A stretch of 64,000 nt of DNA. It comes from Candidatus Latescibacterota bacterium (GTDB lineage: Bacteria > Latescibacterota > UBA2968). The stretch lies in contig OZ220741.1 of assembly GCA_965116885.1 (NCBI GenBank), positions 1,696,001 through 1,760,000 on the forward strand, written 5' to 3'. Made by a program: the position numbers and the translations under genes. Positions 12,857 to 63,020 of this stretch are shown piece after piece. The stretch's first letter is position 1, and the number at the start of each line of letters is the position of its first letter. A model generated the notes under the pieces. The model saw only the letters and a list, made by a program, of their open reading frames with translations. It was not told where the DNA came from and ran no database searches.

Positions 12857-13278
12857 CGCAGTCGCCTCCGACCTGCAAATGAAAAAAAGATGGCTATCAT
12901 TACTGCGGCTACGGTAATACCCACGCCGAGTTCGACCAGGAAGATGCCCAGGTGTTGTCCGTGCGGTGGGTCGGCCGGATCCAGAGCAGTATAATTCAGG
13001 AAGTTGTAACCGAGAAATAGGGAGACCAATCCCGTGCCCGCATAGAGCAAGACGCCGAGTGCGACGAGCGTTTCAATGACCCGGGGTTTTACAATTTGTT
13101 TTGCGGCTTGTAGGCCAAAAATGAGCGTGTAGAGCACCACTGCCGCGGCAAAAATCACACCGGCTTGAAACCCGCCTCCGGGTCCGAAGTCGCCGTGAAA
13201 TTGCACGTAGAGCGCGAATAACAGTATCGGCGGAATTAACCACTTGCCCACTACGCGGGGAATACTCTGATGTCTCAT
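12853..13278 (-). CDS. mrpB: Mrp/Mnh antiporter subunit B
   Basis: HGDFGPGGGFQAG and ELGVGITV motifs. Confidence 0.92.
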   Translation of the reverse strand: MRHQSIPRVVGKWLIPPILLFALYVQFHGDFGPGGGFQAGVIFAAAVVLYTLIFGLQAAKQIVKPRVIETLVALGVLLYAGTGLVSLFLGYNFLNYTALDPADPPHGQHLGIFLVELGVGITVAAVMIAIFFSFAGRRRLR

Positions 13279-13820: not shown

Positions 13821-14139
13821 TTTTCCCTTTGTTGTCGGGGTCGTCAACAAAAGGCTTGAGGCCCGACGTAAATGCCGCTTTGCCTACCGCGTGGGTCGAT
13901 GTGGGGCTGGTGATGAGCAATATCACCAGAATCATCACCAGTTTTACTGTGACCGTTGTCAGACCGCCCTGAAACATCAGCCCCAGCAGGACGAGGCCCG
14001 CCCCCAGTGTGTCGGTAACACCACCGCCGTGCATGCGGCTGTAAAAATCGGGTAAGCGCAAGAGCCCCAGGCCGCCTATCATGCACAGAATACATCCCGG
14101 GATAAGGCAAATCCAGCTCAATATATCGACAATCGTCAT
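13807..14139 (-). CDS. mrpG: Mrp/Mnh antiporter subunit G
   Basis: GLLRLPDFYSRMH, DTLG, TSPTSTHA. Confidence 0.92.
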   Translation of the reverse strand: MTIVDILSWICLIPGCILCMIGGLGLLRLPDFYSRMHGGGVTDTLGAGLVLLGLMFQGGLTTVTVKLVMILVILLITSPTSTHAVGKAAFTSGLKPFVDDPDNKGKNEHD

Positions 14140-14426
14140 GGTGTTTGGGTCCTGTTTTGTTCTTCCGGATCGGCACCCAGGTCATTATAGGTCACAAATT
14201 TTAGAACGGCCAATGTGCCGATAAAGTTGATCAATACATAAATAAGGGCGAGGTCCAGAAAGTCGGGTCGGTCAGTTAAAAATCCGAGTACAGCAATAAA
14301 TAATACGGTTTTGGTGCCAAACATATTTACCGATAGGATGCGATCGTACACAGTTGGCCCCAATAGGGCGCGGCAAAGTGCCAGTGCCATGGTGACCAAT
14401 ATGCCGATCATTGCCGCAATAAACAT
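14136..14426 (-). CDS. mrpF: Mrp/Mnh antiporter subunit F
   Basis: GPTVYDRI and LDLALIYVLINFIGT. Confidence 0.92.
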   Translation of the reverse strand: MFIAAMIGILVTMALALCRALLGPTVYDRILSVNMFGTKTVLFIAVLGFLTDRPDFLDLALIYVLINFIGTLAVLKFVTYNDLGADPEEQNRTQTP

Positions 14427-14427
14427 C

Positions 14428-14907
14428 TCATTGCTCCAGTGCCGTCGTCACGCGGCGGTCCATATCGCCGCTCTGTACATCGTCAGCGGCTTCTTTTGTC
14501 AGGGCATGTACCACAATATCTTCTTCGTCCAGGTCGAGTGACACAGTGCCGGGGGTCAGGGTTATTGAATTGGCAAAAATGACGCGACAGAGATCGGTTT
14601 TTTGCGTTCCCGTTACACGCACGATGCGCGGGGCAATGGGCAATCTGGGATTCAAAATGCGTTTTGCCACGTCGATATTCGCTTTGATAATGGCCCAGGC
14701 CAGCCACGGAATATACACAATCAGGTGTCGGGCCAGATTAATCTGGATCCCTTCTTCATCTACAATAGATAGACGTCCCGCCAGATAAACGACAAAAGCG
14801 CAGGACAATATACCCATGGTGAGGACCAGCGCGTGTTCAAGCGTATAATGTCCAGACCAGAGTAGCCAGAGGATAAATGACAAAACGAAAAAAAAGATGT
14901 ATCGCAT
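14428..14907 (-). CDS. mrpE: Mrp/Mnh antiporter subunit E
   Basis: ANIDVA, ANSITLTPGT, VHAL; start at MRYIFF after GAGGT. Confidence 0.92.
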   Translation of the reverse strand: MRYIFFFVLSFILWLLWSGHYTLEHALVLTMGILSCAFVVYLAGRLSIVDEEGIQINLARHLIVYIPWLAWAIIKANIDVAKRILNPRLPIAPRIVRVTGTQKTDLCRVIFANSITLTPGTVSLDLDEEDIVVHALTKEAADDVQSGDMDRRVTTALEQ

Positions 14908-15135
14908 ATAAACCTCGGATGAAAGCATGGGGGCGGTTCCTATGCCGTCCTCAGAGTCAGCCTACCGAAAAGGCACAAAAAACCCATTCGTTCGCCCGAA
15001 TAGAGTGGATGTGCGAACTATTCTATTTAATATTTTTCAACGCAAAAAATCAAGCGAAATATCTCATCGCGTCTTATCTTGTAGGCGGGTTATTTATTAT
15101 TGAGCAACTGCTTAATTAATAGAAAGGTACAGTCG

Positions 15136-15673: not shown

Positions 15674-16678
15674 TTATTTGAGCAATGTCTCAAAATTAGA
15701 CGTCATTTTTTCCACGAATCCATCCCCCTGTCGTACAATCATAAATACGGCGAGATTGTGTTTTTCTGCATAAGCAAATCCCGTTTCCGGTCCCATTACA
15801 TTGATCGCCGTGGCCAGTCCATCGGCGTAGGCGCAGCTTTTGTGTAGTACTGTTACGGAGGCCAGGGCGTGTGTTATCGGTCGTCCGGTGCGCGGGTCGA
15901 TGGTGTGGGAATACCGTATGCCGTCGCGTTCAAAATAGTTGTGGTAATCGCCCGATGTCGCCATGGACATGTTGTTCAGGACGAGTGCTTTTTGTAGTTC
16001 GCCCTGTCCCGCGGGGCTGGCAATGCCAATTCGCCAGAGTTGTCTCAGGTGATTGTGTCCCTTTGTCCGCAGTTCGCCACCGATTTCGATAAAATAGCGA
16101 TTGATGCCCAAACTGTCCAGATAACTCGCTATGCGATCTACGCCAAATCCCTTGGCGATTGCGGATAAGTCGCAATAGATTTCGGGTCGTTCTTTTTTTA
16201 TGGTGGGAACGGATAAGTCAATGTGAATTTTTTCATAGCCGACCAGTGTTCTGCGAGCGTCAATTGAGTCGGGCGACGGCACGCGCTCGGGGATGGCGTT
16301 GGGTCCAAAACCCCACAGGTTGACCAGCGGCCCGATGGTGACGTCAAACGCGCCGTCGGACCAGGTGCTAATTTCATGAGCGATGTGTAAAACATAAGCA
16401 AAGTCCGATGAGACTGCAAACCAGTCTGTTGAAGGCGAGCGGTTGAATTGGGTGATTTCGGAGTTGTCCTGATAAGTGGACATCTGGCGATTGACTTCTT
16501 CCAATCGCGCATTGATTTCTCGGTCCAATACATCCGCGTCAAGAGTTTGGTCTTTTTGGACGATTTTGACCTGAAACGTCGTTCCCATCGTCGAACCGGA
16601 GATCGTTATCATCTGATCCTGACATCCGATAATAGTTGAGATCGAGATTAAAAAGAAGCAACGCCAAATTCTGTCCAT
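15674..16678 (-). CDS. apbE: FAD:protein FMN transferase ApbE (lipoprotein)
   Basis: Lipobox IIGC; TMGT, FDVTIGPLVNLWGFG, DLSAIAKG, ATSGDY, HTIDPRTG, ADGLATA; start could instead be 16711. Confidence 0.95.
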   Translation of the reverse strand: MDRIWRCFFLISISTIIGCQDQMITISGSTMGTTFQVKIVQKDQTLDADVLDREINARLEEVNRQMSTYQDNSEITQFNRSPSTDWFAVSSDFAYVLHIAHEISTWSDGAFDVTIGPLVNLWGFGPNAIPERVPSPDSIDARRTLVGYEKIHIDLSVPTIKKERPEIYCDLSAIAKGFGVDRIASYLDSLGINRYFIEIGGELRTKGHNHLRQLWRIGIASPAGQGELQKALVLNNMSMATSGDYHNYFERDGIRYSHTIDPRTGRPITHALASVTVLHKSCAYADGLATAINVMGPETGFAYAEKHNLAVFMIVRQGDGFVEKMTSNFETLLK

Positions 16679-16890
16679 TACCCCAAATGTCGTGTTGAAA
16701 AAACGCATCACTGTCTCTCTATCTCAGGCATTAGTGATTCTGAATGGGAATTGGGAATCATATAGCGATACTTATATCCTCCCTGTACGCACACTCTACC
16801 TATCGCTTCACTCCAAAATATATTTTAAAATCCGATCATACTGTAAATATAAATAATTTCAATAGTTTATACAAGTATTATTAAACTCAT

Positions 16891-17158
16891 TTGACACGGC
16901 ATTTTAATCTCTTTATATTCTCCAAAATAGCGAATAATCCAACAATTCAATAAGGAGGTTGACTGTGTTGCCCAAACCCGATTCGTAGCTGGGGTGCAAT
17001 AAAGTATTTGGTGGAGATTTTTCGGCATACAGCCTGTGTTTTTATTTTGACAACTAACGCGCACACAAGGAGGAGGGCCATGCCACCAACGAATTTATGC
17101 GGCTCCGATGAGAAGTCATACTGTGAATCACTTTTGATTGGAGCCGCTTTTTATTTTT
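16891..17158 (+). promoter_or_regulatory. Sigma70 promoter plus ~270-nt leader with uORFs and terminator upstream of the CBS gene
   Basis: TTGACA-N17-TATATT (16891-16919); GCGGCTCC...GGAGCCGC-TTTTT hairpin (17099-17152). Confidence 0.6.
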
Positions 17159-17202
17159 CTTGAACCCATGAAATTTTTCCCCTAACTCATGGAGGTATGA
17201 TC

Positions 17203-17646
17203 ATGACCATTCGAGATATTCTCGACCAAAAAGGTCGCCGCGTGATTACGATTGCCCCTGATCACACATTGGATGTGGTACTGGCTACGCTGATTCAAAA
17301 TAGCGTGGGTGCACTTGTCGTGCAGAATCGAACAGGAGATTTGCTCGGTATTATCACTGAGCGCGATCTGATGCGCGAGGTGTATAATGGCGCGGATTTG
17401 CAGGCTGCGCGCGTTGAAGATGTGATGACGCGCGATCTTGTTACAAGCCATCCGGATTCCGATATTGAATATGTGATGGCAGCAATGACCGAGGGGCGAT
17501 TCCGGCACATGCCGATTGTTGATGAGGTGGGTCGTCTCGCTGGCATTGTGTCGATTGGCGATATTGTTAAAGCCAAGTTGGAATCTGCTGAGGAAGAAGT
17601 GATGATATACAAGGATTTTGTCACGCTGGATTGGCGGGCATCGTAA
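17203..17646 (+). CDS. CBS-domain pair protein
   Basis: IRDILDQKG, GIITERD, VEDVMT, FRHMPIV, GIVSIGDIVK; GGAGG RBS. Confidence 0.93.
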   Translation: MTIRDILDQKGRRVITIAPDHTLDVVLATLIQNSVGALVVQNRTGDLLGIITERDLMREVYNGADLQAARVEDVMTRDLVTSHPDSDIEYVMAAMTEGRFRHMPIVDEVGRLAGIVSIGDIVKAKLESAEEEVMIYKDFVTLDWRAS

Positions 17647-17681
17647 CACAGGAGGTCGATGTGTCTGAAGAACTATCCGAC

Positions 17682-17722
17682 AAAAAAGTCTTCGGTTGCT
17701 GGGTGAACCGAAGACTTTTTTT
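17682..17722. terminator. Bidirectional intrinsic terminator (CBS gene / nqrF)
   Basis: AAAAAAGTCTTCGGTT-N8-AACCGAAGACTTTTTT. Confidence 0.85.
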
Positions 17723-17751
17723 ATGTGATTGATTTTAATTTTTAATTCTTA

Positions 17752-19002
17752 TTACCCGCCAAAATCGTCGAATAAGATATTCTCGGGTTCCACACCCATA
17801 TCGTCCAGCATATCCATGCATGCCACTAACATCAGTGGGGGACCGCAGATATAATATTCACAGTCTTCAGGAGCCGGATGATCTTTCAAATATTCATCGT
17901 AGAGTACCTGGTGAATAAATCCGGTCAAGCCCGTCCAGTTGTCTTCCGGCATGGGGTCGGATAATGCCACATGCCATGTAAAGTTGTCGAAATCGCGCTG
18001 CAATCCGTCGAAGTCATCGACGTAGAACATTTCATTCAGGCTGCGCGCACCATACCAGAAGGTTACTTTGCGGTCTGTGCCAATGCGTTTGAATTGATCG
18101 AAGATGTGCGACCGCATCGGCGCCATGCCAGCGCCGCCACCGATGAAGATCATTTCGGCATCGGTTTCTTTGGCAAAGAACTCGCCGTAGGGTCCGGAAA
18201 TGGTTACGTCATCGCCCGGCTTTAGATCAAAAGTCCACGACGACATTTTGCCCGGGGGAATACCCGTTGTGCCCGGCGGGGGGGACGCCACGCGGATGTT
18301 GAGCATGATGATCCCTTTTTCTTCGGGATAATTCGCCATTGAGTACGCGCGAAAGACGGGTTCATCTACTACCGAGACATTGTCCCATACATTGAAATGA
18401 TCCCAGGTGCTTCTAAAGCGGTCTTCCCCATCGGCGGCTTTGATGTCGAAGTCGCGGTAGTCAACGGTGTGGGGTGGGCATTCGATTTGGATAAAACCAC
18501 CGGCGCGGAACCCGACATCTTCTCCTGGCGGCAGTTCGAGAACGAGTTCTTTGATGAATGTGGCGACATTGTAATTCGAGATTACTTTGCAGTCCCATTT
18601 TTTGATGCTAAATACTTCGGCAGGGACTTCGATATCCATATCGCCCTTCACCGTGACCTGGCACGAAAGCCGACACCCTTCCCGCGCTTCTTTGCGGTTG
18701 ATGTGCGATAGTTCGGTGGATAAGATATCGCCGCCGCCTTCGTTGATCGTCACTTTGCACTGCCCACAGGTGCCGCCTCCGCCGCATGCGGAGGATACAA
18801 AAATTCTATTATCGGCCAATGTGTTGAGCAATTTGCTGCCTATGGGAACAGAAACGCTGTGGTCGGGATCGTCGTTGATGGTGATGTGAGCCTGTCCTGC
18901 GGCAACCAGCCGAGATCTGGCAATGAGAATAATCGCTACCAGCATCAGTACAATGGTGGTAAACATCCCTACACCGAGTAAAATTAGCCTTACGTCTTCC
19001 AT
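17752..19002 (-). CDS. nqrF: Na+-translocating NADH:quinone reductase subunit F
   Basis: [12 protein letters not shown] 2Fe-2S motif, [24 protein letters not shown]-terminal DDFGG; start moved to MEDVRL. Confidence 0.97.
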
Positions 19003-19025
19003 ATTATCTCCACGCTTGCCTGGAT

Positions 19026-19637
19026 CTAAAGTTGAATCCCCGAAAAGAGCATAAATGCCATTGCCATTAAGCCCACGGTCATAAACGTAATGCCCAGCCC
19101 GCGCAATGCAGGTGGCACGTTGCTGTATTTCATTTTTTCTCGTATGCCCGCCAGCCCGACAATGGCGAGCGCCCAACCCGTGCCGCTGCCCAGCCCAAAG
19201 ACGACGCTTTCTGAAAAATTAAAGTCGCGTTCGACCATGAGCAGGGAACCGCCTAAGATCGCGCAGTTCACTGTGATCAGAGGCAAGAATATGCCCAGGG
19301 CGTTGTATAGAGAGGGCACGTATTTGTCCAGTACCATTTCCAAAATTTGAATCATCGCGGCGATTACGCCGATATATGTGACCAGGCCCAAAAATGTGAG
19401 ATCTACGTTTGGCAAACCCGCCCAGGCGAGCGCGCCTTCGGTCAGGACATGGGTAAAAATTAAATTGTTGATCGGCACTGTAATTGTCTGCACCACAATC
19501 ACCGCAATGCCCAGGCCCACAGCGGTTGTCACCTGTTTGGAGACAGCGAGATATGTACACATGCCCAGGAAGAAAGCGAGGGCCATATTTTCGACAAAAA
19601 CGGCTTTGACAAATAAGCTGATATAGTGTTCGGCCAT
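19026..19637 (-). CDS. nqrE: Na+-NQR subunit E
   Basis: [12 protein letters not shown] and [11 protein letters not shown]; start moved to MAEHY. Confidence 0.97.
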
Positions 19638-19638
19638 T

Positions 19639-20322
19639 TTAATCCTCTTCCACTTGCTCGGGTTTCCACGCTCGCACAACCCAGATGAAGAACCCGATTA
19701 AGAAAAACGCACTCGGCGATAATAACATCAAGCCGTTGGGCATGTACCAGCCGCCTTCGGTAATGAGTGGCAAAATGTCAACGCCCAGAAGTTTACCCGA
19801 TCCCAAAAGTTCGCGGAAAAACCCCACCACAATTAAGATGGTACTGTAACCCAATCCATTTCCCAGGCCATCTAATAAGCTGTGCGTGGGGGGATTTTTC
19901 ATTGCAAATCCTTCGGCGCGTCCCATGATGATGCAGTTGGTAATGATCAGTCCGACAAAGATCGACAATTGCTTGGATATGTTGTAAGCAAATGCCTGAA
20001 TAGCCTGGTCGGCGATAATCACAAGCGAGGCAATAATGGTCATTTGTACGATGATGCGGACGCTGGACGGGATGTGATTTCTGATCAGGCTTACCGATAT
20101 ATTGGAAAGCGTGATAACAAAAATGACCGCCAAAGACATGACAATTGAGGTTTCCAGCTTTGTGGTCACCGCGAGTGCCGAACACACGCCCAATACCTGA
20201 CGCCCGATGGGGTTGTCATCAAAGATGGGCGTCCATATCAGGCTTTTGGCTTCTTTCGCCGTCAATGACGGTGATGGTGGCACTTCTGGCGCTTGTTCTT
20301 CCCGTTCGATTACTTCAGCCAC
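19639..20322 (-). CDS. nqrD: Na+-NQR subunit D
   Basis: [12 protein letters not shown] and [17 protein letters not shown] start after AAGGAGG. Confidence 0.97.
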
Positions 20323-21112
20323 GAGCACCTCCTTGTTTTAGCGTGTCTAAAAATCGACCGTATCCTTCGTTGCCCAACCAGTACTTGAGCATACTGTCTA
20401 ATCCCCGTGTGGTGATGGTCGCTCCCGATAGACCATCGACCTGGTATTTTGCTTTTTCACTTTTGGGATTTACCTGGCCTTTGATTACGGAAATTGCGAC
20501 ATTGCCAGCATCGTCATAAGCCTGTTTGCCGGGCCACAAGCCCTTCCATCTGGCGTTATCGACCTCGCCACCCAGTCCCGGGGTTTCGCCGTGTTCGTAA
20601 AATGTGATGCCCTGAATGCTTTGCAGGTCATTGCCCAGAGAGACAAAGCCGTAGAGTGTGGACCAGAGACCATAGCCGTAAATGGGCAAGATAATGCGCT
20701 GCAATTTGTCGTTTTCCATCACTTTATAAACGAAGATGTATTTCGGACGGTTGCGAATATTTGCTATGTCTCTATCCGCATCAACAGAACGCCCAAAAGT
20801 GGGGTCGGCGGCCATTTTCTTTAAGTCATACGTATCTACGTCGATACCATCGGGATATTCTTCGTTGTTCAAGATCTGCCCCGTGTCCAGTTCAATAAGC
20901 AGTGGTACGACTTTATTTTCGTAAACGGACTGGACATCGACCGAGGGATCGTATAGCCCACCCGCAATCAGGATATTTTTTACTTTGTCGAGGCGTTTGT
21001 TTTCTTTTTGGATATCGTGTAAGGATACCGCAAATAGTGAGACAAAAAGAGAACAGACCAGACAAAGGGCCACCGCAACAAAGATCGTTTTTTGGATGCT
21101 GTCATTCTGCAC
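20315..21112 (-). CDS. nqrC: Na+-NQR subunit C
   Basis: [24 protein letters not shown] (FMN-Thr motif); GTG start. Confidence 0.96.
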
Positions 21113-22301
21113 GGGCCAGTCTCCTTTGGATATTGCGGTTGATAAAGACGCGGTCAATGATGGGCGCGAATACGTTGGCGAATAATATGGCCAGCATGAT
21201 GCCTTCGGGATAGGCCGGGTTGGTCACGCGGATCAATACTGTCATGACGCCTATCAAAATGCCATAGATCCATTTGCCCTGGCGCGTCATGGCTGCGCTG
21301 ACCGGATCGGTTGCCATGAATACCGTGCCAAATGCAAAGCCGCCGATGACGAAATGCCAGGCTGGAGATACGTTGAGCAGTGGATTGGTGGTGCTGCCGA
21401 TCCAGTTGAAGAATAGTGCAGATACAATCATGCCGATGGTTACACCGGCCATAATTTGCCACGAGCCAACGCGTGTGAGAATTAGAATGCCGGCACCCAG
21501 CAAGCAGCAAAGCGTTGAGGTTTCTCCCATGGATCCCGGAATCAAACCGATAAATGATTCCCACCATGTGTAATCCATCTGGATATGGGTATCGGCATAG
21601 GCCGCGAGTGGGGTTGCCTGACTATATCCATCGACGGCGATCCAGACTGCATCGCCCGAGATTTGCGCGGGATAGGCAAAATAGAGAAATGCGCGGCCCG
21701 TGAGCGCGGGGTTTAAGAAGTTCATTCCCACGCCGCCGAAGATCTCTTTGCCTATTACAACGCCAAAGATGATGCCTATAGCGACCTGCCACAGGGGAAT
21801 CAGGGGCGGCATTGTCAGGGGGAATAGCGTGCTGGTAACGAGAAATCCCTCGTTGATCTCGTGTTTGCGAATGACTGCAAAGATGGCTTCGCATAAGCCG
21901 CCCGCGGCTACGGTTACGAGTTGTACGGGTACAAAGTAAATAGCGCCAATCGCAAGACAACTGAGTACGTCGGAGGGCAGGAAGGACAAGCCCAGTACCT
22001 GGGCGAGCCAGACGTGCCAATCGCCAGTGCCGATTGCGCCGATATTTTGATAGGCCAGGCTGGCTTGCAAACCCGTATTGTACAGGGCAAATAAAATACA
22101 GGGTTGTAGCGAGAGTACGACCGTAATCATCATCCGCTTCAAATCCATGCCGTCGCGCACATGTGCATCGGCCTGGGTAACCTCACCGGGGGTGTAGAGG
22201 AATGTGTCCCCGGCTTCGTAAAACGGATACAGTTTTTCGAGTTTACCGCCTTCTTCAAAGTGCTCTGCCTGTTTGTCCAATAAATCGCGTAGGGGCTTCA
22301 C
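21102..22301 (-). CDS. nqrB: Na+-NQR subunit B
   Basis: [46 protein letters not shown]. Confidence 0.97.
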
Positions 22302-22309
22302 TATCCTTA

Positions 22310-23662
22310 CTATCCTTCCTTTTCAATTTCGGTGAGATTTTCGCGCAAGATAGGCCCAAAATCCATTTTTGACGAACACGAAAATGTGCATAGTGATAGG
22401 TCTTCTTCATCCAATTCCAGAATACCGAGTTTTTCAGCGTCGTCGAGGTCTCGGGTGACGAGTGCCCGAATCAAAAAGTTGGGCAATATGTCCAGCGGCA
22501 TGACGTCGTCGTAATTGCCATGCGGCACGAGTGCGCGATGGCTGCCATTTGTGGAGGTGTTCAATTTGAGGCGTTGGCCGAAGAACATTTTGGACAGTGC
22601 CAGATTTTTGATGGTGAAAAATTCGAATCCCGGCGTGATCCAGCCCAAAAAGGCGCGTTTGTTGCCTTCTTCAAGTGCGGTGATCTGCTGGTGATACCGC
22701 CCCAGGAAGGCGCGTGTTTCGTCTGCTTTGCGCCCGGAGAGGACAGAGCCGCTGATGACCCGGTTTTCGACGTTTTCGAGTTCTCCTTCTACCAGGTCCA
22801 TTATTGAAGCTCCCAGACGGGTGCGGATCAATTTGGGGTGTTTTACGGTGGGACCGCTCAGAGCGACCACGCGCTCGGTCATAATCCGCCCGGTTGTGAA
22901 CAGATGTCCCCAGGCTATGACATCCTGAAGCCCGATGTGCCAGACTGTTTTGTTGCGGTGAACGGGATCTAAGAAGTGGATGTGCGTGCCGACCAATCCG
23001 GCGGGGTGCGGTCCGGTAAATTCTTCGACCTGTATGCGGTCATCATCGATTTCAGGCAGGTCCAATTCGGGGTCTCTACATACAAAAACCGTCCCATCCA
23101 CGAGTTTTGAGACGATTTTCAAGCCCAATGCGAAATTTCTTTCCTGTCCGGCTAATACACGCGCCATGTCCGGAGATAGTGGGTTGGTGTCCATCGCATT
23201 GACAAAAATGGATCGCGCCTCTGTCGCGGGGTCGGCTACTTTGCTAAATGGCCGCGCTCTCAGGGCGGTCCACTGTCCGGATGAGATGAGTTGTTCTTTG
23301 ACTGTTTCCCGGTCGAGATTGTCAATTTCGTCTTCTCGATGGGATTCAAAGGTGACTTCATCGTTGCCTTCCAGGCGGATGACCGTTGATAAGAAGGCGC
23401 GTTTTATTCCCCGGTTTATGGCGATTACCTCGCCTGCGCCGGGTGAGGTGTAAAGAACACCTTCCATTTTTTTGTCGGTGAACAATACATCGCCGAGTTT
23501 GACGCGGTCTCCCACTTGAGCCACGATTGTGGGACGCATGCCCACATAATCTTCACCTGAGAGTGCCACAGTTTGGACTGGTTTGCCATTTTGTACTGTG
23601 GATTGATCGGGGACGCCGCTAATGGGAAGGTCGAGTCCTTGTTTAATTTTTGTCAATGCCAT
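22310..23662 (-). CDS. nqrA: Na+-NQR subunit A
   Basis: [43 protein letters not shown]-terminal IEKEG; start moved to MALTK. Confidence 0.97.
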
Positions 23663-23685
23663 TATGGTCCTCAATTTTTTCCAAT

Positions 23686-23890
23686 AAAAAAAGCAACCAC
23701 AATTGTCAAATGGCCTTAATAAACAAGGGGGAGACAGACAGTGCAGTTGCTGTTTTGCAGGTGCTATGAACACCTACAGGCATTGGAAACAAATCCATCG
23801 TAATCCAGATAAAGAACAGGTGTGTTATTCAAAAATGCAATAGTTTTCTTGTTTCGAGATAAATTTATTATAAGCGTTTTTAATTGTCAA
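23686..23890 (-). promoter_or_regulatory. nqr operon promoter and structured leader with terminator-like hairpin
   Basis: TTGACA-N17-TAAATT (23890-23862); hairpins at 23778-23756 and 23751-23692 followed by a U-tract. Confidence 0.55.
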
Positions 23891-42580: not shown

Positions 42581-43672
42581 ATGCTCAGAATCAGGCTGGA
42601 AAATGTGACCAAGCGTTTTGACAATGTTCTGGCATTGGATCGCATCAATCTGGAAATTGACGCGGGGGAGTTCTTTTTTTTATTGGGTCCCTCTGGTTGT
42701 GGAAAAACCACGTTGCTGCGTATTTTGGCGGGTTTTGAGCAGCCCGAGAGTGGTCGGGTGCTTTTTGATGAGCGCGATGTGACTGCTGTGCCTCCGCACG
42801 AACGCAATACGGGCATGGTGTTTCAGAATTATGCCTTGTGGCCTCACATGACGGTTTGGAAAAATGTGGAATACGGCCTTACGATGCGCAATATGCCACA
42901 GCACGAGCGCGACCAAAAAGTGAAGCGCGCTCTGGAAATGGTTCAGATGAGCGGTTATGCCAGGCGGTCGCCCAATCAGCTTTCGGGGGGGCAGCAACAG
43001 CGCGTGGCACTGGCGCGGGCACTGGTTATAGAACCGGATGTTGTGTTGTTGGACGAGCCGCTTTCCAATCTGGATGCGCGATTGCGGTTGGAGATGCGCG
43101 AGCAGTTGCTGGATTTACAGCGGACTCTGGATGTAACGATGATTTATGTGACACACGATCAAAAAGAAGCGCTGGCTATGGGCGAGCGCATTGCGGTTAT
43201 GCAGATGGGTAAGGTGGCGCAAATCGGTACGCCGCGGGATGTTTACAGGCAACCGCTCACGCGCTTTGTCGCGGATTTTATTGGTGAGATCAATTTGATT
43301 TCCGGGGAGATAAAATCTGTGGAATCCGGGGTGGTTGCTGCAACAGATGTGGGAGATATTCTCGGGCAGGCGGGATATGAGGGTATTCAGGTTGGAGATC
43401 GGGTGTTGTGCGCGATTCGACCCGAGGCGATAGGTTTTCTTTTAGATGAATCTGGAGCGGTAGATAATGTCATTTCTGGGCATGTGCGGCGTGCAATTTA
43501 TCTGGGCGAAGTCGAACAATTTTTTGTTGAATTGGCAAGTGGGGATCAGGTCAAACTGATTAAGTACGACGCGACTATGCAGCACGTACAACCCGGCGAT
43601 GAGGTGCGACTGGGGTTTTCGCAAGTGGTCATGTTGCGCGATGAAGCGGAGGACCGCGATGAAGCGGTTTGA
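42581..43672 (+). CDS. ABC transporter ATP-binding protein (PotA/FbpC-like)
   Basis: GPSGCGKTT, FQNYALWPH, LSGGQQQR, LLDEP, TOBE-like C-terminus. Confidence 0.93.
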   Translation: MLRIRLENVTKRFDNVLALDRINLEIDAGEFFFLLGPSGCGKTTLLRILAGFEQPESGRVLFDERDVTAVPPHERNTGMVFQNYALWPHMTVWKNVEYGLTMRNMPQHERDQKVKRALEMVQMSGYARRSPNQLSGGQQQRVALARALVIEPDVVLLDEPLSNLDARLRLEMREQLLDLQRTLDVTMIYVTHDQKEALAMGERIAVMQMGKVAQIGTPRDVYRQPLTRFVADFIGEINLISGEIKSVESGVVAATDVGDILGQAGYEGIQVGDRVLCAIRPEAIGFLLDESGAVDNVISGHVRRAIYLGEVEQFFVELASGDQVKLIKYDATMQHVQPGDEVRLGFSQVVMLRDEAEDRDEAV

Positions 43673-45365: not shown

Positions 45366-48300
45366 GTGATGGACTTGCGGAGATGGATAATTATTTTTGC
45401 AGGGGGTGTGATAGGCATGGTCAATGCGGCGATGGCACAGAATACACCATGGCGCTATGATTTTGAGGCGTTGTCCGGGTCCTATCGGGCAGATGCAGGC
45501 AGTCAGGTTTCGCTTTCGACGAGGCGTTACAAGGGAGGAGCACAATCTCTGAAGTGGGCATGGCAGAATAATGGGCGGATTGTGTTCACGGATCCCGCGC
45601 CGGGACGTAGCGAGGTACTGATCGGATTTCGGGCGTGGGTGTACAACGAGGAAGCGCTCGATGAGGTGCTGACGTTTGGGTTTGGCACGGAATCTGAGTT
45701 GTCGGCAAATAATCCGCGTTACCAGTTTGAGTTTGGCTTGAATTTTACGGGCTGGCGGGCGATGTGGATCCATTTGCGAGAGGATGCGCGGAATAATTCT
45801 TATACGGGTCCGAGAAATGGGCGTGTGACGGCGTTTGAAATCAGGGCACCGAATAGCGGAGCTGTTTATCTGGATTTGATCGAGTTGGTGGAAAGGATTG
45901 ACTCCAGACGATCTCCAGATGCACAGGTTCCATTTGTGAATGGAGGTGCAAATACAAGTGGCGATAAAACCCGCGAATATCGATGGAGTCTGAATAGATT
46001 GCCGGGTCCGCTTCCTTCGCAGATTACCGATGATGAGAGACGGGCTTTTGAGACGATTGCCCGACGATATGAGGCATGGGTTCTGGGCGATGGGGTGAAG
46101 AATGATCAGCGGGAGCCTGTGAGGATTCGGCTCAATGAACTTACAGCCTATATAAGGCGTGGGCATAGCAATCTGGCGAATTACGAGATTCGGCGGGAAA
46201 ATGACCTCATTCTGGGTAAACCTCTGTTTGCGGCTCGGTCATCCTACAGGCCCTATTTTCAGAGTGTTTTTCAAAATGTCTTGTTGCGTCTGGTGCTGGA
46301 TTATCGGTTGAATGGCAATGAGGAGGCCAGAGACCGGGTGATAGATGTGTTCGATTATTTGCACGATCAAGGATGGGCAGAAGGCAGTGGTGTTGGCGCG
46401 TTGCATCACGAGTTTTTGCGGATTGCGAGCTATGCCCATGCGGTGTATTTGATGCGGGATATTTTGGAGGATACGGAACGGCTGGAACGGGAATTGGCGA
46501 GTTTGAAATGGTATAGCATGTTTGGCGAGTTGTATGAACAGACCTGGGATCCGGGCACGAATGCAGATTTTTTGCGTTCGGTGGCGATGTATCGTTTGTT
46601 GTGTATTTTGATGATGGACGATTCGCCCGAGAAGGTGGCGAATATGCGCCGCTATGTTGTATGGCTGAATAATGCGCTGGATATTGCACCCGGGTGGCTG
46701 GATACGATTAAGCCGGATTACACGGGTTTTCACCATCGGGGTATTTACGCCAATGCGTATGCGCCAAATGCTTTTCACGTGGCTTCTGTGCTGGTGTATT
46801 TGTTGCACGATACGCCTTTTGCAGTTGGGGATGAGAAGCGCGATAATTTGAAGCAGGCGCTGTTGACGTCCAGGATTATGGCGAATACGTATGATATTTC
46901 AACGGCCATTAACGGGCGTTTTCCGCTTAATACAACAGTCACCGATGGTCTTTTGCCGGCGTATATGTATGTGGCTTTGAGTTATCCTTCGGTGGATGCG
47001 GAATTATCGGGCGCGTTTATGCAGCTTTGGAAACCGGATTCGCAGTTGCTGATAGAAGGTTTGTTCGAACAGGTAGCTTCGCGGATTATGTATTTGCACA
47101 CGCCGGGTGCGATGCAGATGATGGCGGATTTTGCAAGTGCGGGGTACGCACCTGTTGCTGAGCCTTCTGGGCACTGGACGTTGCCTTATGGTGCGTTGTC
47201 CATTCATAGGCGTGCGGACTGGATGGTGAGTATGAAGGGGTGGAGCAAGTACGTGTGGGATTACGAGTCGTCAGTCGGTGGTGAAAATCCGCTCGGTCGT
47301 TATTTGAGCTATGGTTCGATGCTGATTTACGCCAGCGGTAATCCGGTTGGCCGGGAGGCGAGTGGGATTGTGCGAGATGGGTGGGATTGGAGTATGTGGC
47401 CGGGTACGACGGTGATTCGCCTGAGTCATGAGCAGCTCAAACACGAGGGGCGGGATCGCAATTTTTCGGATGAGACTTTCGTGGGTGGGGTGAATATAGA
47501 AGGGCAGAATGGTGTGTTTGCACTGAAGTTGCACGATACGAGGTTCAATACGAGTTTTCGAGCGGTTAAGACGGTGTTCTGTTTTGATGATGTACTTGTT
47601 TGCCTGGGGTCGGGTATTGAGAACGATGATGGTGGTCATACGACGGTGACGCCGTTGTTTCAGGCGGCTATTTCTGAGGATCGTTCTACGGGGGTGAATG
47701 GGGAGCGTGTGCATGCGATTCCCTATACGTTTTCGGGGATAGAGAGACAGAGGGCATGGCTAATGGATTCACGGGGCAATGGGTATGTGATCCCCGATGG
47801 TGAGGGTCTGCAGGTGCAGCGTAGGGTGCAAACTCCTGGAGACTTTGGCAACGAGGGTGGTACAGGGGCTTTTGAACTGGCGTATCTGGATCACGGTAGC
47901 GCGCCTCAGGGTGCGTCATATCACTATGCCGTGCTGGTGCAGAGGTCGCCTGATAGGGTGCGTGTGTTTGCCAATGCACCGGAATACGATGTGTGGCAAC
48001 GAGATGGTCAGGCACATATTGTGCGTCATAGGGGGATGAAGATGACGGGTTACGCGCTGTTCGATAAGGATGCAAGGCCAACAGGCGGTCCAGTTGAGTC
48101 TGTGTCTTTGCCGAGTTTGGTAATGTCCCGAGAAGTGGATGATGGGTTATTGCTTTCAGTGGCTGATCCGGATTTTGGGTGGCGTTGGGAGATTCAGACG
48201 CCGCATCGCCAGGATGGTTCGCTAATTGTCAATCAGCCGAGTGAGCCTCGGAAGGTAGAGGTGATAGTGCGCGGCAAATGGCGTTTGGATCAATCCTATG

Positions 48301-48638
48301 ATCTGGTAGAGATTGTAGAGGAGAGCGAGGATCAGACGGTTGTGGCGTTTATCTGTCAGGACGGCAAAAGCGTGGAGGTGAAACTGGTCAGGCCAGGTAT
48401 TGGTGTTGCAAATCTGGATTTTGATGGAGACGGTGCGGTTGGGTTCACGGATTTTTTGCTCTTTTCCAGCAAATTTGGTCTGTCGGAGGGGGATGCGGGT
48501 TTTGAAGCACAATACGATCTGGATGGTAATGGTATGGTGGGGTTCAGCGATTTTCTGATTTTTGTACAGGGATTTGGCAAACCAGTGAGTGGAAAACCCG
48601 TTGCTCTCCGGAATGGAGGAGAAAGATTGGGGTCGTGA
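45366..48638 (+). CDS. Chondroitinase ABC-like polysaccharide lyase (PL8) with C-terminal dockerin/EF-hand-like domain
   Basis: Signal peptide; SLKWAW, LNFTGWRA, DQGWAEGS, IKPDYTGFHH..Y...Y, GRYLSYG, GWDW..WPGTT; C-terminal DFDGDGAVGFTDF...DLDGNGMVGFSDF. Confidence 0.85.
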   Translation: MMDLRRWIIIFAGGVIGMVNAAMAQNTPWRYDFEALSGSYRADAGSQVSLSTRRYKGGAQSLKWAWQNNGRIVFTDPAPGRSEVLIGFRAWVYNEEALDEVLTFGFGTESELSANNPRYQFEFGLNFTGWRAMWIHLREDARNNSYTGPRNGRVTAFEIRAPNSGAVYLDLIELVERIDSRRSPDAQVPFVNGGANTSGDKTREYRWSLNRLPGPLPSQITDDERRAFETIARRYEAWVLGDGVKNDQREPVRIRLNELTAYIRRGHSNLANYEIRRENDLILGKPLFAARSSYRPYFQSVFQNVLLRLVLDYRLNGNEEARDRVIDVFDYLHDQGWAEGSGVGALHHEFLRIASYAHAVYLMRDILEDTERLERELASLKWYSMFGELYEQTWDPGTNADFLRSVAMYRLLCILMMDDSPEKVANMRRYVVWLNNALDIAPGWLDTIKPDYTGFHHRGIYANAYAPNAFHVASVLVYLLHDTPFAVGDEKRDNLKQALLTSRIMANTYDISTAINGRFPLNTTVTDGLLPAYMYVALSYPSVDAELSGAFMQLWKPDSQLLIEGLFEQVASRIMYLHTPGAMQMMADFASAGYAPVAEPSGHWTLPYGALSIHRRADWMVSMKGWSKYVWDYESSVGGENPLGRYLSYGSMLIYASGNPVGREASGIVRDGWDWSMWPGTTVIRLSHEQLKHEGRDRNFSDETFVGGVNIEGQNGVFALKLHDTRFNTSFRAVKTVFCFDDVLVCLGSGIENDDGGHTTVTPLFQAAISEDRSTGVNGERVHAIPYTFSGIERQRAWLMDSRGNGYVIPDGEGLQVQRRVQTPGDFGNEGGTGAFELAYLDHGSAPQGASYHYAVLVQRSPDRVRVFANAPEYDVWQRDGQAHIVRHRGMKMTGYALFDKDARPTGGPVESVSLPSLVMSREVDDGLLLSVADPDFGWRWEIQTPHRQDGSLIVNQPSEPRKVEVIVRGKWRLDQSYDLVEIVEESEDQTVVAFICQDGKSVEVKLVRPGIGVANLDFDGDGAVGFTDFLLFSSKFGLSEGDAGFEAQYDLDGNGMVGFSDFLIFVQGFGKPVSGKPVALRNGGERLGS

Positions 48639-48656: not shown

Positions 48657-48691
48657 AAAAAAAGCCGCCACACAATGTGGCGGCTTTTTTT
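48657..48691. terminator. Bidirectional intrinsic terminator
   Basis: A7-GCCGCCACA-CAA-TGTGGCGGC-T7 between convergent genes. Confidence 0.9.
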
Positions 48692-48968
48692 ATTCCTTAG
48701 AATGCGACTTGTCCCAAATGGGTTTTACTTTTTCGATAACTTCGGCATCGGTCGGACTGGATGCGACGATGTTTGTAAATTCTTCAGCTTCAACCCCAAG
48801 TTCCTCCAGGAACTTTCGGTCAGCTGGTCACGGATAGACGTAGTCACCGATGCAGCCTCGCAACTTGGCGCGGGCTTTATCTGTAATGCGCGGGAGCCAG
48901 GGCATGTCGCCCATGTAAAGCTGACGGCTGCGCGGTCTAAAATCAACAGCGGAACTGAGTTTGTCCAT
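48690..48968 (-). CDS. DUF5069-like small protein with in-frame TGA (candidate selenoprotein, Sec47)
   Basis: Hand translation: MDKLSSAVDFRPRSRQLYMGDMPWLPRITDKARAKLRGCIGDYVYP(TGA)PADRKFLEELGVEAEEFTNIVASSPTDAEVIEKVKPIWDKSHSKE-TAA; AAGGAGG RBS; terminator directly after TAA. Confidence 0.8.
48785..48827 (-). promoter_or_regulatory. Candidate bacterial SECIS hairpin
   Basis: Directly 3' of the UGA: CAGCU/AGCUG and GACC/GGUU lower stems, apical AAGUUCC-UGGA-GGAACUU (48815-48798). Confidence 0.7.
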
Positions 48969-49031
48969 TTTTCATATCCCTCCTTGTGTTGTGATAGTTA
49001 AAACATAGTGATTTTGGCGATGGATAGCAAG

Positions 49032-49604
49032 TTAGAAAGTGAGGGTGTATGTGCTCAATGTTGTGTCGCCGTATTTTTTTTGTCGGGAGAGGGTGAGCTT
49101 GGAAAAGGATTCTGGTAGCGGTGTGCGAGAGGTGTGTTGGACGAGAACGCGGGCGTTGGGAGCGAGTATCGGAATTGTTGCGAGGCGGGTGAGTATCGCG
49201 CAGGACATGGGGTGTCCGCCTAATTGTTGTTGGTAGGGAGGATCGAGGTATATGATGTCAAATATGGAACGGGACCGCACGAGTTGGGGCAAGAGTTTTT
49301 GCGCGGGACGCGCGTAAAGATAGATGCGATCGTTGAGATGCCAATTGTCTATTAGCTGTGCGATGAAGCGGTTGCAGCGGCGGTCGGGTTCGTTGATGAC
49401 CACCTGCGCACCGCGGCTACAGGCTTCGAGGCCGATTTGACCCGAGCAGGAGAAGAGGTCGAGGAAATAACTGCCGCAGAGGATTTCGCCGAGGGAAGAG
49501 AATACGGCTTTTTTGACAAAGTCGGATGTGACGCGGGCATTGCCGTACTTTTTGTTGTTAAAGGGGATGCGGCGGCCCTTAAATTCCCCAGCGATGATGC
49601 GCAT
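49032..49604 (-). CDS. rsmD: 16S rRNA (guanine966-N2)-methyltransferase RsmD family
   Basis: MRIIAGEFKGRR, LDLFSCSGQIGLEACSRGA, DIIYLDPPY, KKYGDT. Confidence 0.88.
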   Translation of the reverse strand: MRIIAGEFKGRRIPFNNKKYGNARVTSDFVKKAVFSSLGEILCGSYFLDLFSCSGQIGLEACSRGAQVVINEPDRRCNRFIAQLIDNWHLNDRIYLYARPAQKLLPQLVRSRSIFDIIYLDPPYQQQLGGHPMSCAILTRLATIPILAPNARVLVQHTSRTPLPESFSKLTLSRQKKYGDTTLSTYTLTF

Positions 49605-53666: not shown

Positions 53667-56648
53667 TCAGAACCCCTCAAACTGGCTCAGGTCTGCAATG
53701 CCGTCGGGCAGGGCGGCGATGTGCTGGGCAAGGGCGAGGCGCGATTGCTTGAGGTCGGGATCATCGACCATGATGAGCACGTCTTCGAAGAAGCTGTTGA
53801 TGGGGTCGCGCAATTCGGCCATGACCTGGATCAGGGCGGTGAGTTTGTCGTCGGCTGCATCCATTGTTTTGCGCGCGGCGAGATAGGCTTTGTGCAGTGC
53901 CTGGGAGGCTTCTTCGGGGTCGCGGTCAGGAGTGAGATCGTAGTGCTCTGAGAGGTCGCGCACAATGCGTTTGCACCGCGCATGGGCATGGAGGATGTCG
54001 AGCCATTGATCGGAATGGATTTGCGCGGTAAATGCCCGGGCAATCCGCTGGATTTGATAGGGGTCATCCAAATTTTCCGCAATCGCAGCGGAAATTGCGT
54101 CGTGGCGCAGGCCCTCGTCTCGCAGGACTACTTCGAGGCGACGGATAATGTAGTCAAAGGCTTCGTCGAGGGCATCTCGTTTGACTACAACGGACAAGTG
54201 ATTGGCGGCTACATTGAGGCCCTGGCGCAGGGGAAAATGCATTTTGTAACCGAGGAGATTTGAAAGCAGACCCAGGGTGTCGCGCCTGAGACCATAAGGG
54301 TCAGCATTTGAGCGGGGTTTGATGCCCACGCCAAAAAGACCGGCGAGGCTGTCGAGACGGTCGGCTATTGAGACAGCGAGACCGGGTTGTGTTTGGGGCA
54401 GTGAGTCGCCCGGGAAGCGCGGATGGTAATGGTCTTCAATGGCGCGCGCAACGGCTTTCGTTTCGCCGGAAGACAGGGCGTAGTAGCGGCCCATGATGCC
54501 TTGCAGAGAGGTCATTTCAACGACCATGCTGGTCGCCAGATCGGCTTTGCACAATACGGCTGCGCGCAGAGCCGTTTTTTTATTTTTTTCCCGAAGTCCA
54601 AGCGCGGCAGATAAGTCGTTGACGAGTTTTTCAACACGGCGGGTTTTGTCGCGCATAGAGCCGAGTTTTTCTTGAAAGGTGAGGGTGTCCAGGCGCGACA
54701 GAAAGTCGCCGAGTTTTTTGTTTGTGTCGTCTTCGTAAAAGAATCTGGCGTCGGCATATCTGGCGCGTATGACGTTTTCATTGCCTTTGACGACGAGGTC
54801 GGGGTCGTCGGGTATTCCGTTGCATACAGTGATGAAGTTGGGTTTGAGATCGCCTTTTTCGTCGAGTATTGGAAAATATCGCTGATGTTTTTTCATGACG
54901 GCGATGAGCATTTCGCGGGGTAGGGAAAGGCGCGCGCTTTCAAAGGTGCCACAAAGCGCGTGCGGGGCTTCGACGAGGTCGGTGACTTCGTCGATCAGGT
55001 CGGGATCGTCGGGCACGTTGCCGTCAATTTGTTGGGCTACTGTTTCGATTTGTTGTTTGATGGTTTCGCGCCGTTTGTCGCGGTTGACTACGATGCCGTG
55101 TTTTTGCATTTGCGCGCGATAGTCAGAAGCAGAAGCGATTTCGATTTCTGGCGAGGCGTTGGGGCGCAGCCCGCGACTCGTGCGTCCTGCTGTTGCGCGC
55201 GCATAAGTGAATGGGATGATTTGATCGCCAAAGAGAGCGACAATCCAGCGGAGGGGCCGCGGATATGCGATTCCTTCAGAATTCCAGCGCATGGTTTTGC
55301 CAAAGCTGAGTTTGGCGATGAGTTCGGGTAGCAGTTCAGAGAGGATTTCCTGGGTTTTGCGTCCGTAAATGGTGATGCCTGCCCAGACGTAGTCGTCGCG
55401 CTGTTCTACTTCTGACGGATCAATGCCCTGTCCGCGGGCAAATCCCTGAAGTGCTCGGGTGGGATCGCCGTCATTGTCATAGGCGATGCGGATGGCTGGT
55501 CCGCGCGCTTGTTTGATTTCATCGGGTTGCCGTCCCAGCAGATTTTTGACGATGGCATATTGTCTGCGCGGCGTACCGCTGACTTCGATGCTGTCGTACG
55601 TGAGATTTGCTTCGCCGAGGTGTTCGGGCAGCAGTTTTTCGAGTTGTGATATCGCGCTGACGACATCGGCAGGTGGCAGTTCTTCCGAGCCGATTTCGAG
55701 CAGGAGATCGGCGGCGTTTAATTCGGGCAGTTCTTCGGCTTCGGATACCAGTGGGGGCTTGTCCTTTAATGGTTTTATGAGGGGATGTCCCTGGTCTTCG
55801 CGTTGTTTGACATAGGCTTCGGCTATTTGGCGCGAGAGGTCGCGCATTTGGGCAAAAAAACGGGCGCGTTCGGTTACGCCAATGGCACCGCGCGTGTCGA
55901 GCAGATTAAAGGTGTGCGAGCAGCGAATGACGTAGTCGTGTGCGGGAATGACGAGGTCGCGGTCAAGAGCTGCCTGGGCTTCGGCTGTAAAGATGTCGTA
56001 CATGGATTTGAGGCGGTTGACGTCGGCCCAGTAGAATTCGTAGTTGCAGTATTCTATTTCTTGTCTTTTGAGGATGTCGCCATAAGTTACTGTGTCATTC
56101 CACTGCAATTGCCAGACTTCATCCACGCCTTGAAGATACATGGCAATGCGTTCGAGACCGTAGGTGATTTCAACGGCAACGGGATCGAGTTGCATGCCGC
56201 CCGCCTGCTGGAAATAGGTAAATTGCGTGATTTCCATGCCGTCTAACCACACTTCCCATCCCAGGCCCCATGCACCCAGAGCTGGGGATTCCCAGTTGTC
56301 TTCGACAAAGCGGATGTCGTGTGCTTTGCAATCGAGTCCCAGAGTTTCGAGGCTTTTGAGATACAGTTCCTGCGGGTTGCCGGGATCGGGTTTGAGGATG
56401 ACCTGATACTGGGTGTGCATTTGCATGCGGTTGGGATTTTCACCAAAGCGCCCATCGTCGGGGCGATAGGAGGGTTCAACATAAGCGACGTTCCAGGGTT
56501 CGGGGCCAAGTACGCGCAATACTGTGGCGGCGTTCATTGTGCCTGCGCCCACTTTTTCGCTGTAGGGTTGCCATATTATACAGCCGTTGTCGGCCCAGAA
56601 GCGCTCAAGGCGCATGATCAGGTCTTGAAAATTCAGGTGGTTGCTCAC
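53667..56648 (-). CDS. glyQS: Glycine--tRNA ligase, fused alpha+beta subunits
   Basis: Alpha motifs ([35 protein letters not shown]) run in frame into beta motifs ([23 protein letters not shown]); GTG start at 56648. Confidence 0.95.
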
Positions 56649-56690
56649 GGTTGGTTCCTCGGTTGGTGTATCGTAGGGACAGAGGGTAGC

Positions 56691-56762
56691 GGGCGGGCAC
56701 AGGGGCACCGCCCCTACATGCAATGATCGTGTCCGTGTAGGGGACGGCCCCTGTGCCGTCCC
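56691..56762. mobile_element. Composite REPIN-like element (second copy, opposite orientation)
   Basis: Reverse complement matches 30429-30505. Confidence 0.75.
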
Positions 56763-62570: not shown

Positions 62571-63020
62571 GTCATTTTGGCATGTAAACCGCGATTCAGT
62601 GTTTGCGAACTGTGGATGGGAAAACTTGATATCCCATTCACAGTTTTTTTATAAAAATGCACCAATTCTGAAAAAAATGAAAAAATCTAACATATGAATA
62701 ATGATTCTAATATATGAGCAATCTTTTCCAATTGCAGTCATAGACGCAATGGTGTTATTATACAAAAGCCGCTGACAAGACCAGGACAAGTCAACTGTCA
62801 GCGGCGGCAAATATCTCAAGCTGATAACTTGAGAAGGATAAATAAAGGTAGCGACCTGAAGCGCGATTGTCAATGTGAATATAATGTTCAATGCAAAAAG
62901 AGAAAAGTGAACAATGTGTTCACTTCTCAATTCGATGTTCAGCCTGACTTTTACTCGATAATAATCTCTATACGAAATAAAAATAATGACTTACAAATAT
63001 TATTATTTTAAAAGTCCACA

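Follow-up and report, generated by a model that had tools for sequence, protein, structure and literature searches.

A predicted selenoprotein gene of the DUF5069 family, with an in-frame UGA and a SECIS-like hairpin, in a Latescibacterota genome

New selenoprotein families are still found regularly. A 2026 review lists 119 prokaryotic selenoprotein families or subfamilies (PMC13188914, Table 1), and the model of the bacterial selenocysteine insertion sequence (SECIS) given in the legend of its Figure 2 has an apical loop of 3-9 nt on an upper stem of 4-16 bp, a G in the first two loop positions (often then G or U), a distance of 16-37 nt between the UGA and the loop, and a minimum free energy (MFE) of -7.5 kcal/mol or lower. 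Here we analyze a 64,000-nt stretch of contig OZ220741.1 from a Candidatus Latescibacterota bacterium (the window, whose positions are used throughout) that carries, on its minus strand, an intact gene, very probably for a DUF5069 selenoprotein of 92 residues. An in-frame UGA is predicted to encode selenocysteine (Sec) at residue 47 and is directly followed by a hairpin; comparison with related loci leaves us highly confident that the UGA truly specifies Sec and that the hairpin is its SECIS. Set against the published model, the hairpin lies within every range, with a loop of 4 nt (U-G-G-A), a stem of 6-7 bp, a distance of 19 nt and an MFE of -19.2 kcal/mol.

The gene was proposed in a first-pass annotation of the window, and all the parts named there can be read on the minus strand: AAGGAGG, a spacer of ten nucleotides, ATG at 48968, 46 codons, TGA at 48830-48828, 45 further codons, TAA and a terminator (Table 1). 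Read through, the frame gives 92 residues with U47. There is no sensible gene in the open reading frame (ORF) track at this place because translation table 11 lists just a 46-aa stub (48828..48968, minus strand) and an antisense ORF of 108 aa (48675..49001, plus strand). The antisense ORF is a shadow frame, not a gene; it is longer than the stub, and a gene caller may favor it.

The UGA and the conserved cysteine column of DUF5069

The membership in DUF5069 proposed in the first-pass annotation is borne out by a Pfam search, in which DUF5069 (PF16798) is the one family matched by the read-through protein: residues 12-85, on both sides of the UGA, score 61.2 bits (gathering cut-off 27; E = 1.5e-16). 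The alignment takes in profile positions 4-77 of 133, short of whole-domain coverage; the predicted protein is a short form of DUF5069, about 90 residues long like its ~90-aa relatives. A profile search of 1.84 billion cluster representatives returned 759 members of the family at E <= 1e-3, and 109 diverse members of 85-200 aa were aligned, the query being included with a placeholder C. The UGA does stand at the family's Cys position: the column of residue 47 holds Cys in 92 of the 109 members, the placeholder counted. P12, R13, R27, D30, K31, D50 and D74 are near-invariant in this alignment, and the window protein has all of the family-wide columns, that is, an N-terminal P-R, R-x-x-D-K on helix 1, G-x-Y-x-Y-P-C-P-x-D with U in place of the Cys, and a later D. 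Residue 47 is directly preceded by a conserved G-D/E-Y-x-Y-P loop, and the local sequence around it is Y-P-U-P-A-D.

To follow the codon itself, we drew on a profile search of one-genome-per-species contigs, which matched 251 stretches and yielded 236 confirmed relatives; the best 80 were kept as loci of 2-20 kb, labeled as Latescibacterota, Poribacteria, Gemmatimonadota-labeled metagenome-assembled genomes and one Opitutales. Among these best 80 of 236 relatives, the aligned codon is TGA in 61, TGC in 15 and TGT in 4, and is never any other codon. The same split of 61 U and 19 C for this gene came out of an independent all-against-all screen of 4675 read-through candidates from 1.5 Mb of sequence, in which 12 rows classed as "other" are Cys in duplicate alignments of Cys-type loci.

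Homologues with TGA or Cys in this column, conserved beyond it, are thus at hand, and the pattern of substitution on the two sides of the codon can be compared. We estimated the ratio of nonsynonymous to synonymous substitution rates (dN/dS) among the TGA loci for 36 codons on each side of the UGA. It is 0.10-0.12 upstream and 0.22-0.23 downstream, or 0.22-0.26 downstream once the hairpin is excluded (both downstream ranges run from the median to the ratio of means), with dS at ~1.4 throughout. Because purifying selection acts downstream of the UGA (dN/dS ~0.22 at this dS), we conclude that the C-terminal half is translated. TGA is nevertheless the terminal stop of 19 of the 50 long ORFs in the window and of 11 of the 61 Sec-type genes themselves, so UGA is not generally reassigned. 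Comparison of the loci shows, then, that UGA47 is a sense codon at the conserved Cys column of the family and that the sequence after it is both translated and selected.

A TGA in this place might also come from a nonsense mutation, a pseudogene lesion or a sequencing or assembly error in a Cys-type DUF5069 gene. The nearest database cluster (P0002, 95% identical, 25 members) and two close relatives among the loci (L010 and L012) indeed have Cys, encoded in the loci by TGC, and assembly errors do occur in this group: P0033, an 80-aa entry from a 367-kb contig, is identical to the window protein for ~29 residues and then runs out of frame, probably because of a frameshift from assembly or sequencing error. 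Against a lesion stand the TGA codons in the same column of 61 of 80 species-level genomes from at least two phylum-level groups, a downstream frame that is intact and under the selection described above, and a hairpin that co-occurs strictly with TGA. The proteins of the TGA-type loci, moreover, range from 99% down to ~48% identity to the window protein, which excludes a single clonal assembly artifact. Taken with this evidence, a damaged or misread Cys-type gene has an almost vanishing probability, and the selenoprotein gene is the reading that we carry forward.

Traces of the UGA can be followed in database records as well. Three close homologues (P0023, P0030 and P0032) stop exactly at ...YP, an end also found in 11 of 150 listed family representatives, and five homologues (P0003-P0006 and P0012) have Trp at the Sec column. 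One of the latter, P0005, is the translation of locus L018 (L018:7565-7837) except for W in place of U; such Trp residues most likely arose on short metagenomic contigs where table-4 gene models translated the UGA. The homologues are named just "hypothetical protein" or "DUF5069 domain-containing protein." The truncated and the W-bearing entries are marks of mis-annotation, and the locus thereby reveals that annotation of two uncultured phyla goes wrong systematically: the gene is rendered as 46-aa stubs, as antisense shadow ORFs or, by table-4 models, with Trp at the UGA.

A hairpin fixed in position after the UGA

Counting nucleotides from the U of the UGA, nt 16-22 of the window hairpin pair with nt 27-33 and enclose a UGGA loop at nt 23-26, so that the loop begins 19 nt after the UGA and has G in its second position, just as the first-pass annotation had described it. 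The MFE of -19.2 kcal/mol applies to nt 5-46; the 18-nt apical part alone gives -6.7 kcal/mol. As a single sequence, the fold is moderately unusual (z = -2.58, with 3 of 200 shuffles folding equally well), and it is the comparison across loci, not the single-sequence fold, that makes the hairpin more than a chance structure.

After the UGA, the 61 TGA loci align without gaps, and the spacing of 19 nt is the same in all of them. A core of 14 nt (nt 18-31) is identical in 60 of the 61; in the remaining one (L060), pair 18-31 is swapped from G-C to C-G, a compensatory change. The core is kept in none of the 19 Cys loci. Of the TGA loci, 55 can form all six apical pairs and 6 can form five, compared with 5, 4, 3 or 1 pairs, and never 6, in the Cys loci (0/19), and the TGGA loop is present in 61/61 TGA loci versus 4/19 Cys loci. 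The RNAalifold consensus is a 6-bp stem (17-32 to 22-27). When pairs are counted over the 56 distinct sequences, pair 17-32 is AU in 38, UA in 7 and GU in 5, and pair 9-42 of the lower stem is CG in 14, UA in 14, AU in 13, GC in 2, G-U or U-G in 3 and unpaired in 10. The covariation score is 0.143, compared with 0.057 in shuffled alignments (0/500 reach the observed value) and at most 0.079 in slid controls. In this comparison, a position-fixed hairpin, the putative SECIS, is shown to follow the UGA only in TGA-type genes.

An Rfam scan of the window gave no match, to the hairpin or otherwise. Hairpins resembling it (NNCCTGGAGGNN between flanks able to pair) occur at 87 places; 62 of these are DUF5069 sites in the loci, 1 is the window's own, and the remaining 24 have no conserved in-frame TGA ~19 nt before the loop.

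The core also encodes the conserved FLEE motif, so that protein and RNA constraints overlap, and table 11 gives exactly the 46-aa ORF. One might on these grounds take a 46-residue N-terminal peptide for the real product, and the hairpin for a regulatory or terminator-like RNA or its conservation for a reflection of the K-F-L-E-E-L motif. The codons argue otherwise. Codons 53-56 are TTC-CTG-GAG-GAA in 61/61 TGA loci, and in a 54-nt alignment the four third-codon positions within the core are invariant while all 13 outside it vary (the TGA itself aside). This freezing of synonymous positions is confined to the TGA loci; the Cys loci use TTT besides TTC, four different Leu codons (CTC, CTT and TTG among the codons seen) and several other residues at positions 55-56. 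The change in L060 alters both partners of one pair. Further downstream, all 45 codons are in frame and match the DUF5069 profile up to position 77, purifying selection is seen even outside the hairpin (dN/dS 0.26), and no in-frame Met follows the UGA that could serve for separate initiation. A 46-residue product is accordingly very improbable next to the full-length selenoprotein.

The two codon types are interleaved in the phylogeny. In a tree of the 80 proteins, built by a quick method from 91 columns with the Sec/Cys column masked and with many forks unresolved, at least five Sec/Cys changes are needed, three of them forced by well-supported branches. Both main clades hold both states, with 18 Sec and 5 Cys in the Poribacteria clade and 43 Sec and 14 Cys in the Latescibacterota/Gemmatimonadota-labeled clade. 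L010 and L012, whose proteins are 96% identical to that of the window, branch within the window's Sec clade or beside it. The first-pass annotation had envisaged that close relatives with TGC or TGT and without a hairpin would point to a nonsense mutation; TGC is indeed found in these two loci, but the hairpin is still there, with one core substitution in each, and the 61 TGA loci argue against a nonsense mutation. We read L010 and L012 (L010:10139-10192 and L012:10139-10192) as apparent recent Sec-to-Cys conversions with a decaying SECIS. Together, the 61 TGA and 19 Cys loci, such conversions included, offer material for studies of SECIS constraint and loss.

Decoding of the UGA and genomic setting

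By the established bacterial mechanism, SelB carrying Sec-tRNA(Sec) would bind the apical stem-loop while the ribosome sits at the UGA, and its delivery of the aminoacyl-tRNA would insert selenocysteine in place of termination. Several observations weigh against this assignment. Variation is lacking in four of the six apical pairs, and RNAalifold assigns covariation a term of only -0.18; among the 56 distinct sequences, 6 have pair 17-32 broken; overall, 75% of cells pair, the lower stems being lineage-specific and poorly kept outside Latescibacterota. Over the 63 nt after the codon, the mean MFE is -14.8 ± 3.5 kcal/mol in TGA loci and -18.7 ± 4.0 kcal/mol in Cys loci, the latter being more GC-rich. 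In the family alignment, the residue-47 column has Ser in 12/109 and Gly in 2/109 members, so the residue is not essential everywhere (the Ser could fit either a nucleophile or divergent subfamilies). The window protein has no UxxC/CxxU motif, and there is no conserved second Cys among the 109 family members. Gene neighbors differ between phyla and give no functional clue. Finally, genes for Sec machinery were sought and not found: ARAGORN finds the window free of tRNA genes and detects no tRNA-Sec in L001-L060 (60 of the 80 loci), Pfam scans of 48 of the 50 long window ORFs (all except the antisense shadow ORF and 62649-62930) show no sel gene, and tblastn with E. coli K-12 SelA, SelB and SelD against the window and the 80 loci gives one match, in L047, which we rejected as SelB because it is EF-Tu next to EF-G.

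The negative result for sel genes, which agrees with the first-pass annotation as far as the window is concerned, rests on ~1.5 Mb of sequence drawn from syntenic regions of 81 genomes, only a minor fraction of every genome, and absence there says little. Indirectly, a decoding system is required by the UGA itself, which 61 species-level genomes retain and which is followed by sequence under purifying selection. As for the folding energies, hairpin stability was rejected as a discriminator between Sec and Cys types, since the Cys loci fold at least as strongly overall. The decisive point is the strict association of a fixed, position-specific stem-loop, the presumptive SECIS, with the TGA state, and not stability.

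UGA can be decoded as something other than Sec, for example by suppressor tRNAs or with Cys carried on a tRNA(Sec)-like tRNA. Decoding of either kind, the latter dependent on SelB, or near-cognate read-through to Trp, Cys or Arg would fit the absence of Sec machinery genes from the window and the loci examined. The column is otherwise occupied only by Cys in the 80 loci, however, which is the classical Sec/Cys signature, and the hairpin has the loop size, loop G, spacing and energy that the SelB-type bacterial SECIS model calls for. General suppression is contradicted by the normal terminating role of UGA in other ORFs and at the ends of 11 of these very genes. In addition, Poribacteria, which have the same gene, appear in a 2026 paper (PMC13582414) among the phyla with predicted Sec-containing group 4 hydrogenases. 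Decoding as a residue other than Sec is therefore improbable, although less so than either of the alternatives considered above, and Sec insertion remains our reading of UGA47.

No second gene of this type emerged. Of nine TGA-split ORFs in the window searched against Pfam, none has a family match spanning its TGA; eight have no match, and in the ninth, which encodes an ordinary ABC ATPase, the domains that match lie ahead of the TGA stop. The ABC-transporter ATPase gene at 42581-43670 (plus strand) was considered as a second selenoprotein gene and rejected, its TGA being conserved in more than 20 loci and never aligned with Cys; an open in-frame stretch follows that TGA. Likewise, the screen of 4675 read-through candidates from 1.5 Mb produced no second convincing Sec/Cys pair, its other high scorers being conserved true stops or shadow frames.

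The window has 50.6% G+C and is a bacterial chromosome segment; across 7 kb around the gene, its DNA is ~91% identical to L009 and L005, which places it in a Latescibacterota-like genome. The DUF5069 gene follows a gene for an RsmD-like methyltransferase and converges on a gene for a PL8 polysaccharide lyase (45366-48638, plus strand). T-runs flank the hairpin at 48657-48684 on both sides, and it appears to be a bidirectional terminator shared by the two convergent genes. A same-strand gene of the RsmD family (cluster c0) is found in the 5 kb upstream, usually directly adjacent, in 35 of the 80 loci, RsmD being the neighbor in Latescibacterota. In the Poribacteria loci among L044-L080 (region from +150 to +1400 or so, relative to the Sec/Cys codon), UPF0182 is found upstream and chorismate mutase/prephenate dehydratase (PheA) downstream; next come an aminotransferase and EPSP synthase in some of these loci and QueG in others. 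This gene order may represent phylum-level synteny or a functional link. The Gemmatimonadota-like group has a different, unnamed neighbor protein. Elsewhere in the window are a fused glycyl-tRNA synthetase (GlyQS), with alpha and beta domains joined in one 1018-aa ORF (53667-56723, minus strand), a cluster for an Mrp/Mbh-type multi-subunit cation antiporter (7604-14928, minus strand), and an Nqr/Rnf-type operon with NqrA, B/D-like, FMN-binding and NqrF-like subunits, then ApbE (15674-23773, minus strand).

Table 1. Features of the predicted selenoprotein locus, in window positions
Feature	Position	Strand	Remarks
Shine-Dalgarno-like AAGGAGG	48979..48985	-	Read from sequence; 10-nt spacer to ATG
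Coding sequence of the 92-residue predicted DUF5069 selenoprotein	48690..48968	-	ATG 48968, predicted Sec codon 47, TAA 48692-48690
In-frame UGA, predicted selenocysteine codon (residue 47)	48828..48830	-	Aligned column only TGA, TGC or TGT in 80 loci
SECIS-like hairpin, nt 5-46, lower stems and apical stem-loop	48785..48826	-	MFE -19.2 kcal/mol
Apical stem-loop of the putative SECIS, loop UGGA at 48808-48805	48798..48815	-	RNAalifold consensus; 7 bp in window, 6 bp in consensus
Intrinsic terminator directly 3' of TAA	48657..48684	-	GC-rich inverted repeat and T-run; terminator-like call at 48684-48667, with calls on both strands over 48664-48684
RsmD-like methyltransferase gene (Cons_hypoth95), upstream neighbor, context only	49032..49604	-	Pfam E = 4.4e-38

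The predicted selenocysteine residue and comparison with known systems

Against solved structures, a profile of close relatives finds 3omd, an uncharacterized protein of Leptospirillum rubarum (E = 9.8e-17), which carries Cys at the position aligned to residue 47. The AlphaFold model, built on 25 sequences, is all-alpha with four helices (mean predicted local distance difference test score 84) and places residue 47 immediately before helix 48-57; in a Foldseek search of the Protein Data Bank, 3omd_A is the only match below E = 1 (TM score 0.78, root-mean-square deviation 2.0 Å, 36% identity). The all-helical model and the lack of a second Cys within three residues of the predicted Sec do not fit a redox selenoprotein with a thioredoxin fold or a UxxC/CxxU motif. 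Nor did Cys39, put forward in the first-pass annotation as a resolving partner, hold up: it is restricted to the window's own clade (15 of the 61 Sec loci), and position 39 is Thr in 67 of the 109 family members.

Selenocysteine almost always marks a catalytic or redox-active position, and the conserved Cys of DUF5069 is for that reason a probable reactive center. The likeliest part for Sec47 would be that of a single-selenol redox or nucleophilic center recycled by an external reductant, or that of a ligand for a metal or chalcogen. The lack of a conserved second Cys and of a UxxC/CxxU motif, together with a fold that is not thioredoxin-like, leads us to picture a lone reactive selenol at a helix N-terminus, engaged in redox or nucleophilic chemistry with an external reductant or in ligand binding; we give this picture about an even chance. 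Proteins that carry DUF5069 twice or three times in tandem also belong to the wider family, as do fusions to Cupin_2 (three), DUF2249, a methyltransferase, an AI-2E transporter and a fragment of dienelactone hydrolase (DLH) (tandem and fusion proteins: P0034, P0035, P0040, P0043, P0061, P0078, P0093, P0126, P0124 and P0106); these fusions are too mixed to indicate function.

A broader proposal is more speculative, and we think it rather less likely to be right than wrong: DUF5069 would be a hitherto unrecognized selenoprotein family, distinct in fold, in which a single Sec or Cys at a helix N-terminus is catalytic. Its members would represent a novel class of proteins for single-selenol redox chemistry or for selenium/sulfur handling, and a widespread, perhaps the principal, selenoprotein of the uncultured phyla Latescibacterota and Poribacteria, with a SECIS core that dictates F-L-E-E. 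If so, a SECIS core identical in both phyla would imply a shared SelB specificity or transfer of the gene with its SECIS.

The first-pass annotation did not know DUF5069 as an established selenoprotein family, and we have come upon no record of it as one. DUF5069/PF16798 is absent from the full Table 1 of PMC13188914, and no NCBIfam family matches the read-through protein at E up to 1, in a collection whose models cover most listed selenoprotein families. No paper on DUF5069, PF16798 or IPR031849 was found in the searchable literature, although candidate lists in supplements could still include the family; literature matches to "3OMD" have an unrelated meaning. The family does not appear in the accessible part of the deep-Sep paper, and its motifs are missing from the available portions of the GOS paper (PMC2398784) and two of its supplement files, where GOS_A was considered as this family and rejected as a different sequence. 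Within the part of the literature open to search, there was likewise no paper on Sec use in Latescibacterota. We rate DUF5069 as a new bacterial selenoprotein family that uses the ordinary Sec-insertion mechanism. It would add one family to those catalogued, indicates Sec decoding in Latescibacterota, and provides a functional handle on DUF5069, a family of unique fold whose sole solved structure (3omd) has no assigned function.

Among described proteins, the closest are the Cys-type members of DUF5069 (PF16798, including 3omd), which share the family, the fold and columns P12, R13, R27, D30, K31, G41, Y43, D50 and D74; the window protein differs in having a predicted Sec for the conserved Cys and in its short form of ~90 residues, and no activity can be transferred from the family. 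The predicted DUF-type selenoprotein families DUF523, DUF1858, DUF3179, DUF166 and DUF1573 (PMC13188914, Table 1) belong to the same class of evidence, a Sec/Cys pair with a bacterial SECIS-like structure, from which DUF5069 stands apart by the absence of a UxxC/CxxU motif and of a thioredoxin-like fold, its model being all-alpha. With the canonical genes that have an intragenic SECIS, such as the E. coli formate dehydrogenases (PMC13188914), the locus shares an in-frame UGA, Cys homologues and a coding-region stem-loop directly 3' of the UGA, as well as the small apical loop with G in its first two positions and the spacing of 16-37 nt. In contrast to the formate dehydrogenases, DUF5069 is an unrelated protein family without a metal-cofactor context, and its putative SECIS, to which SelB would bind by analogy with the canonical elements, has a sequence of its own, with a core that is almost invariant across Latescibacterota and Poribacteria.

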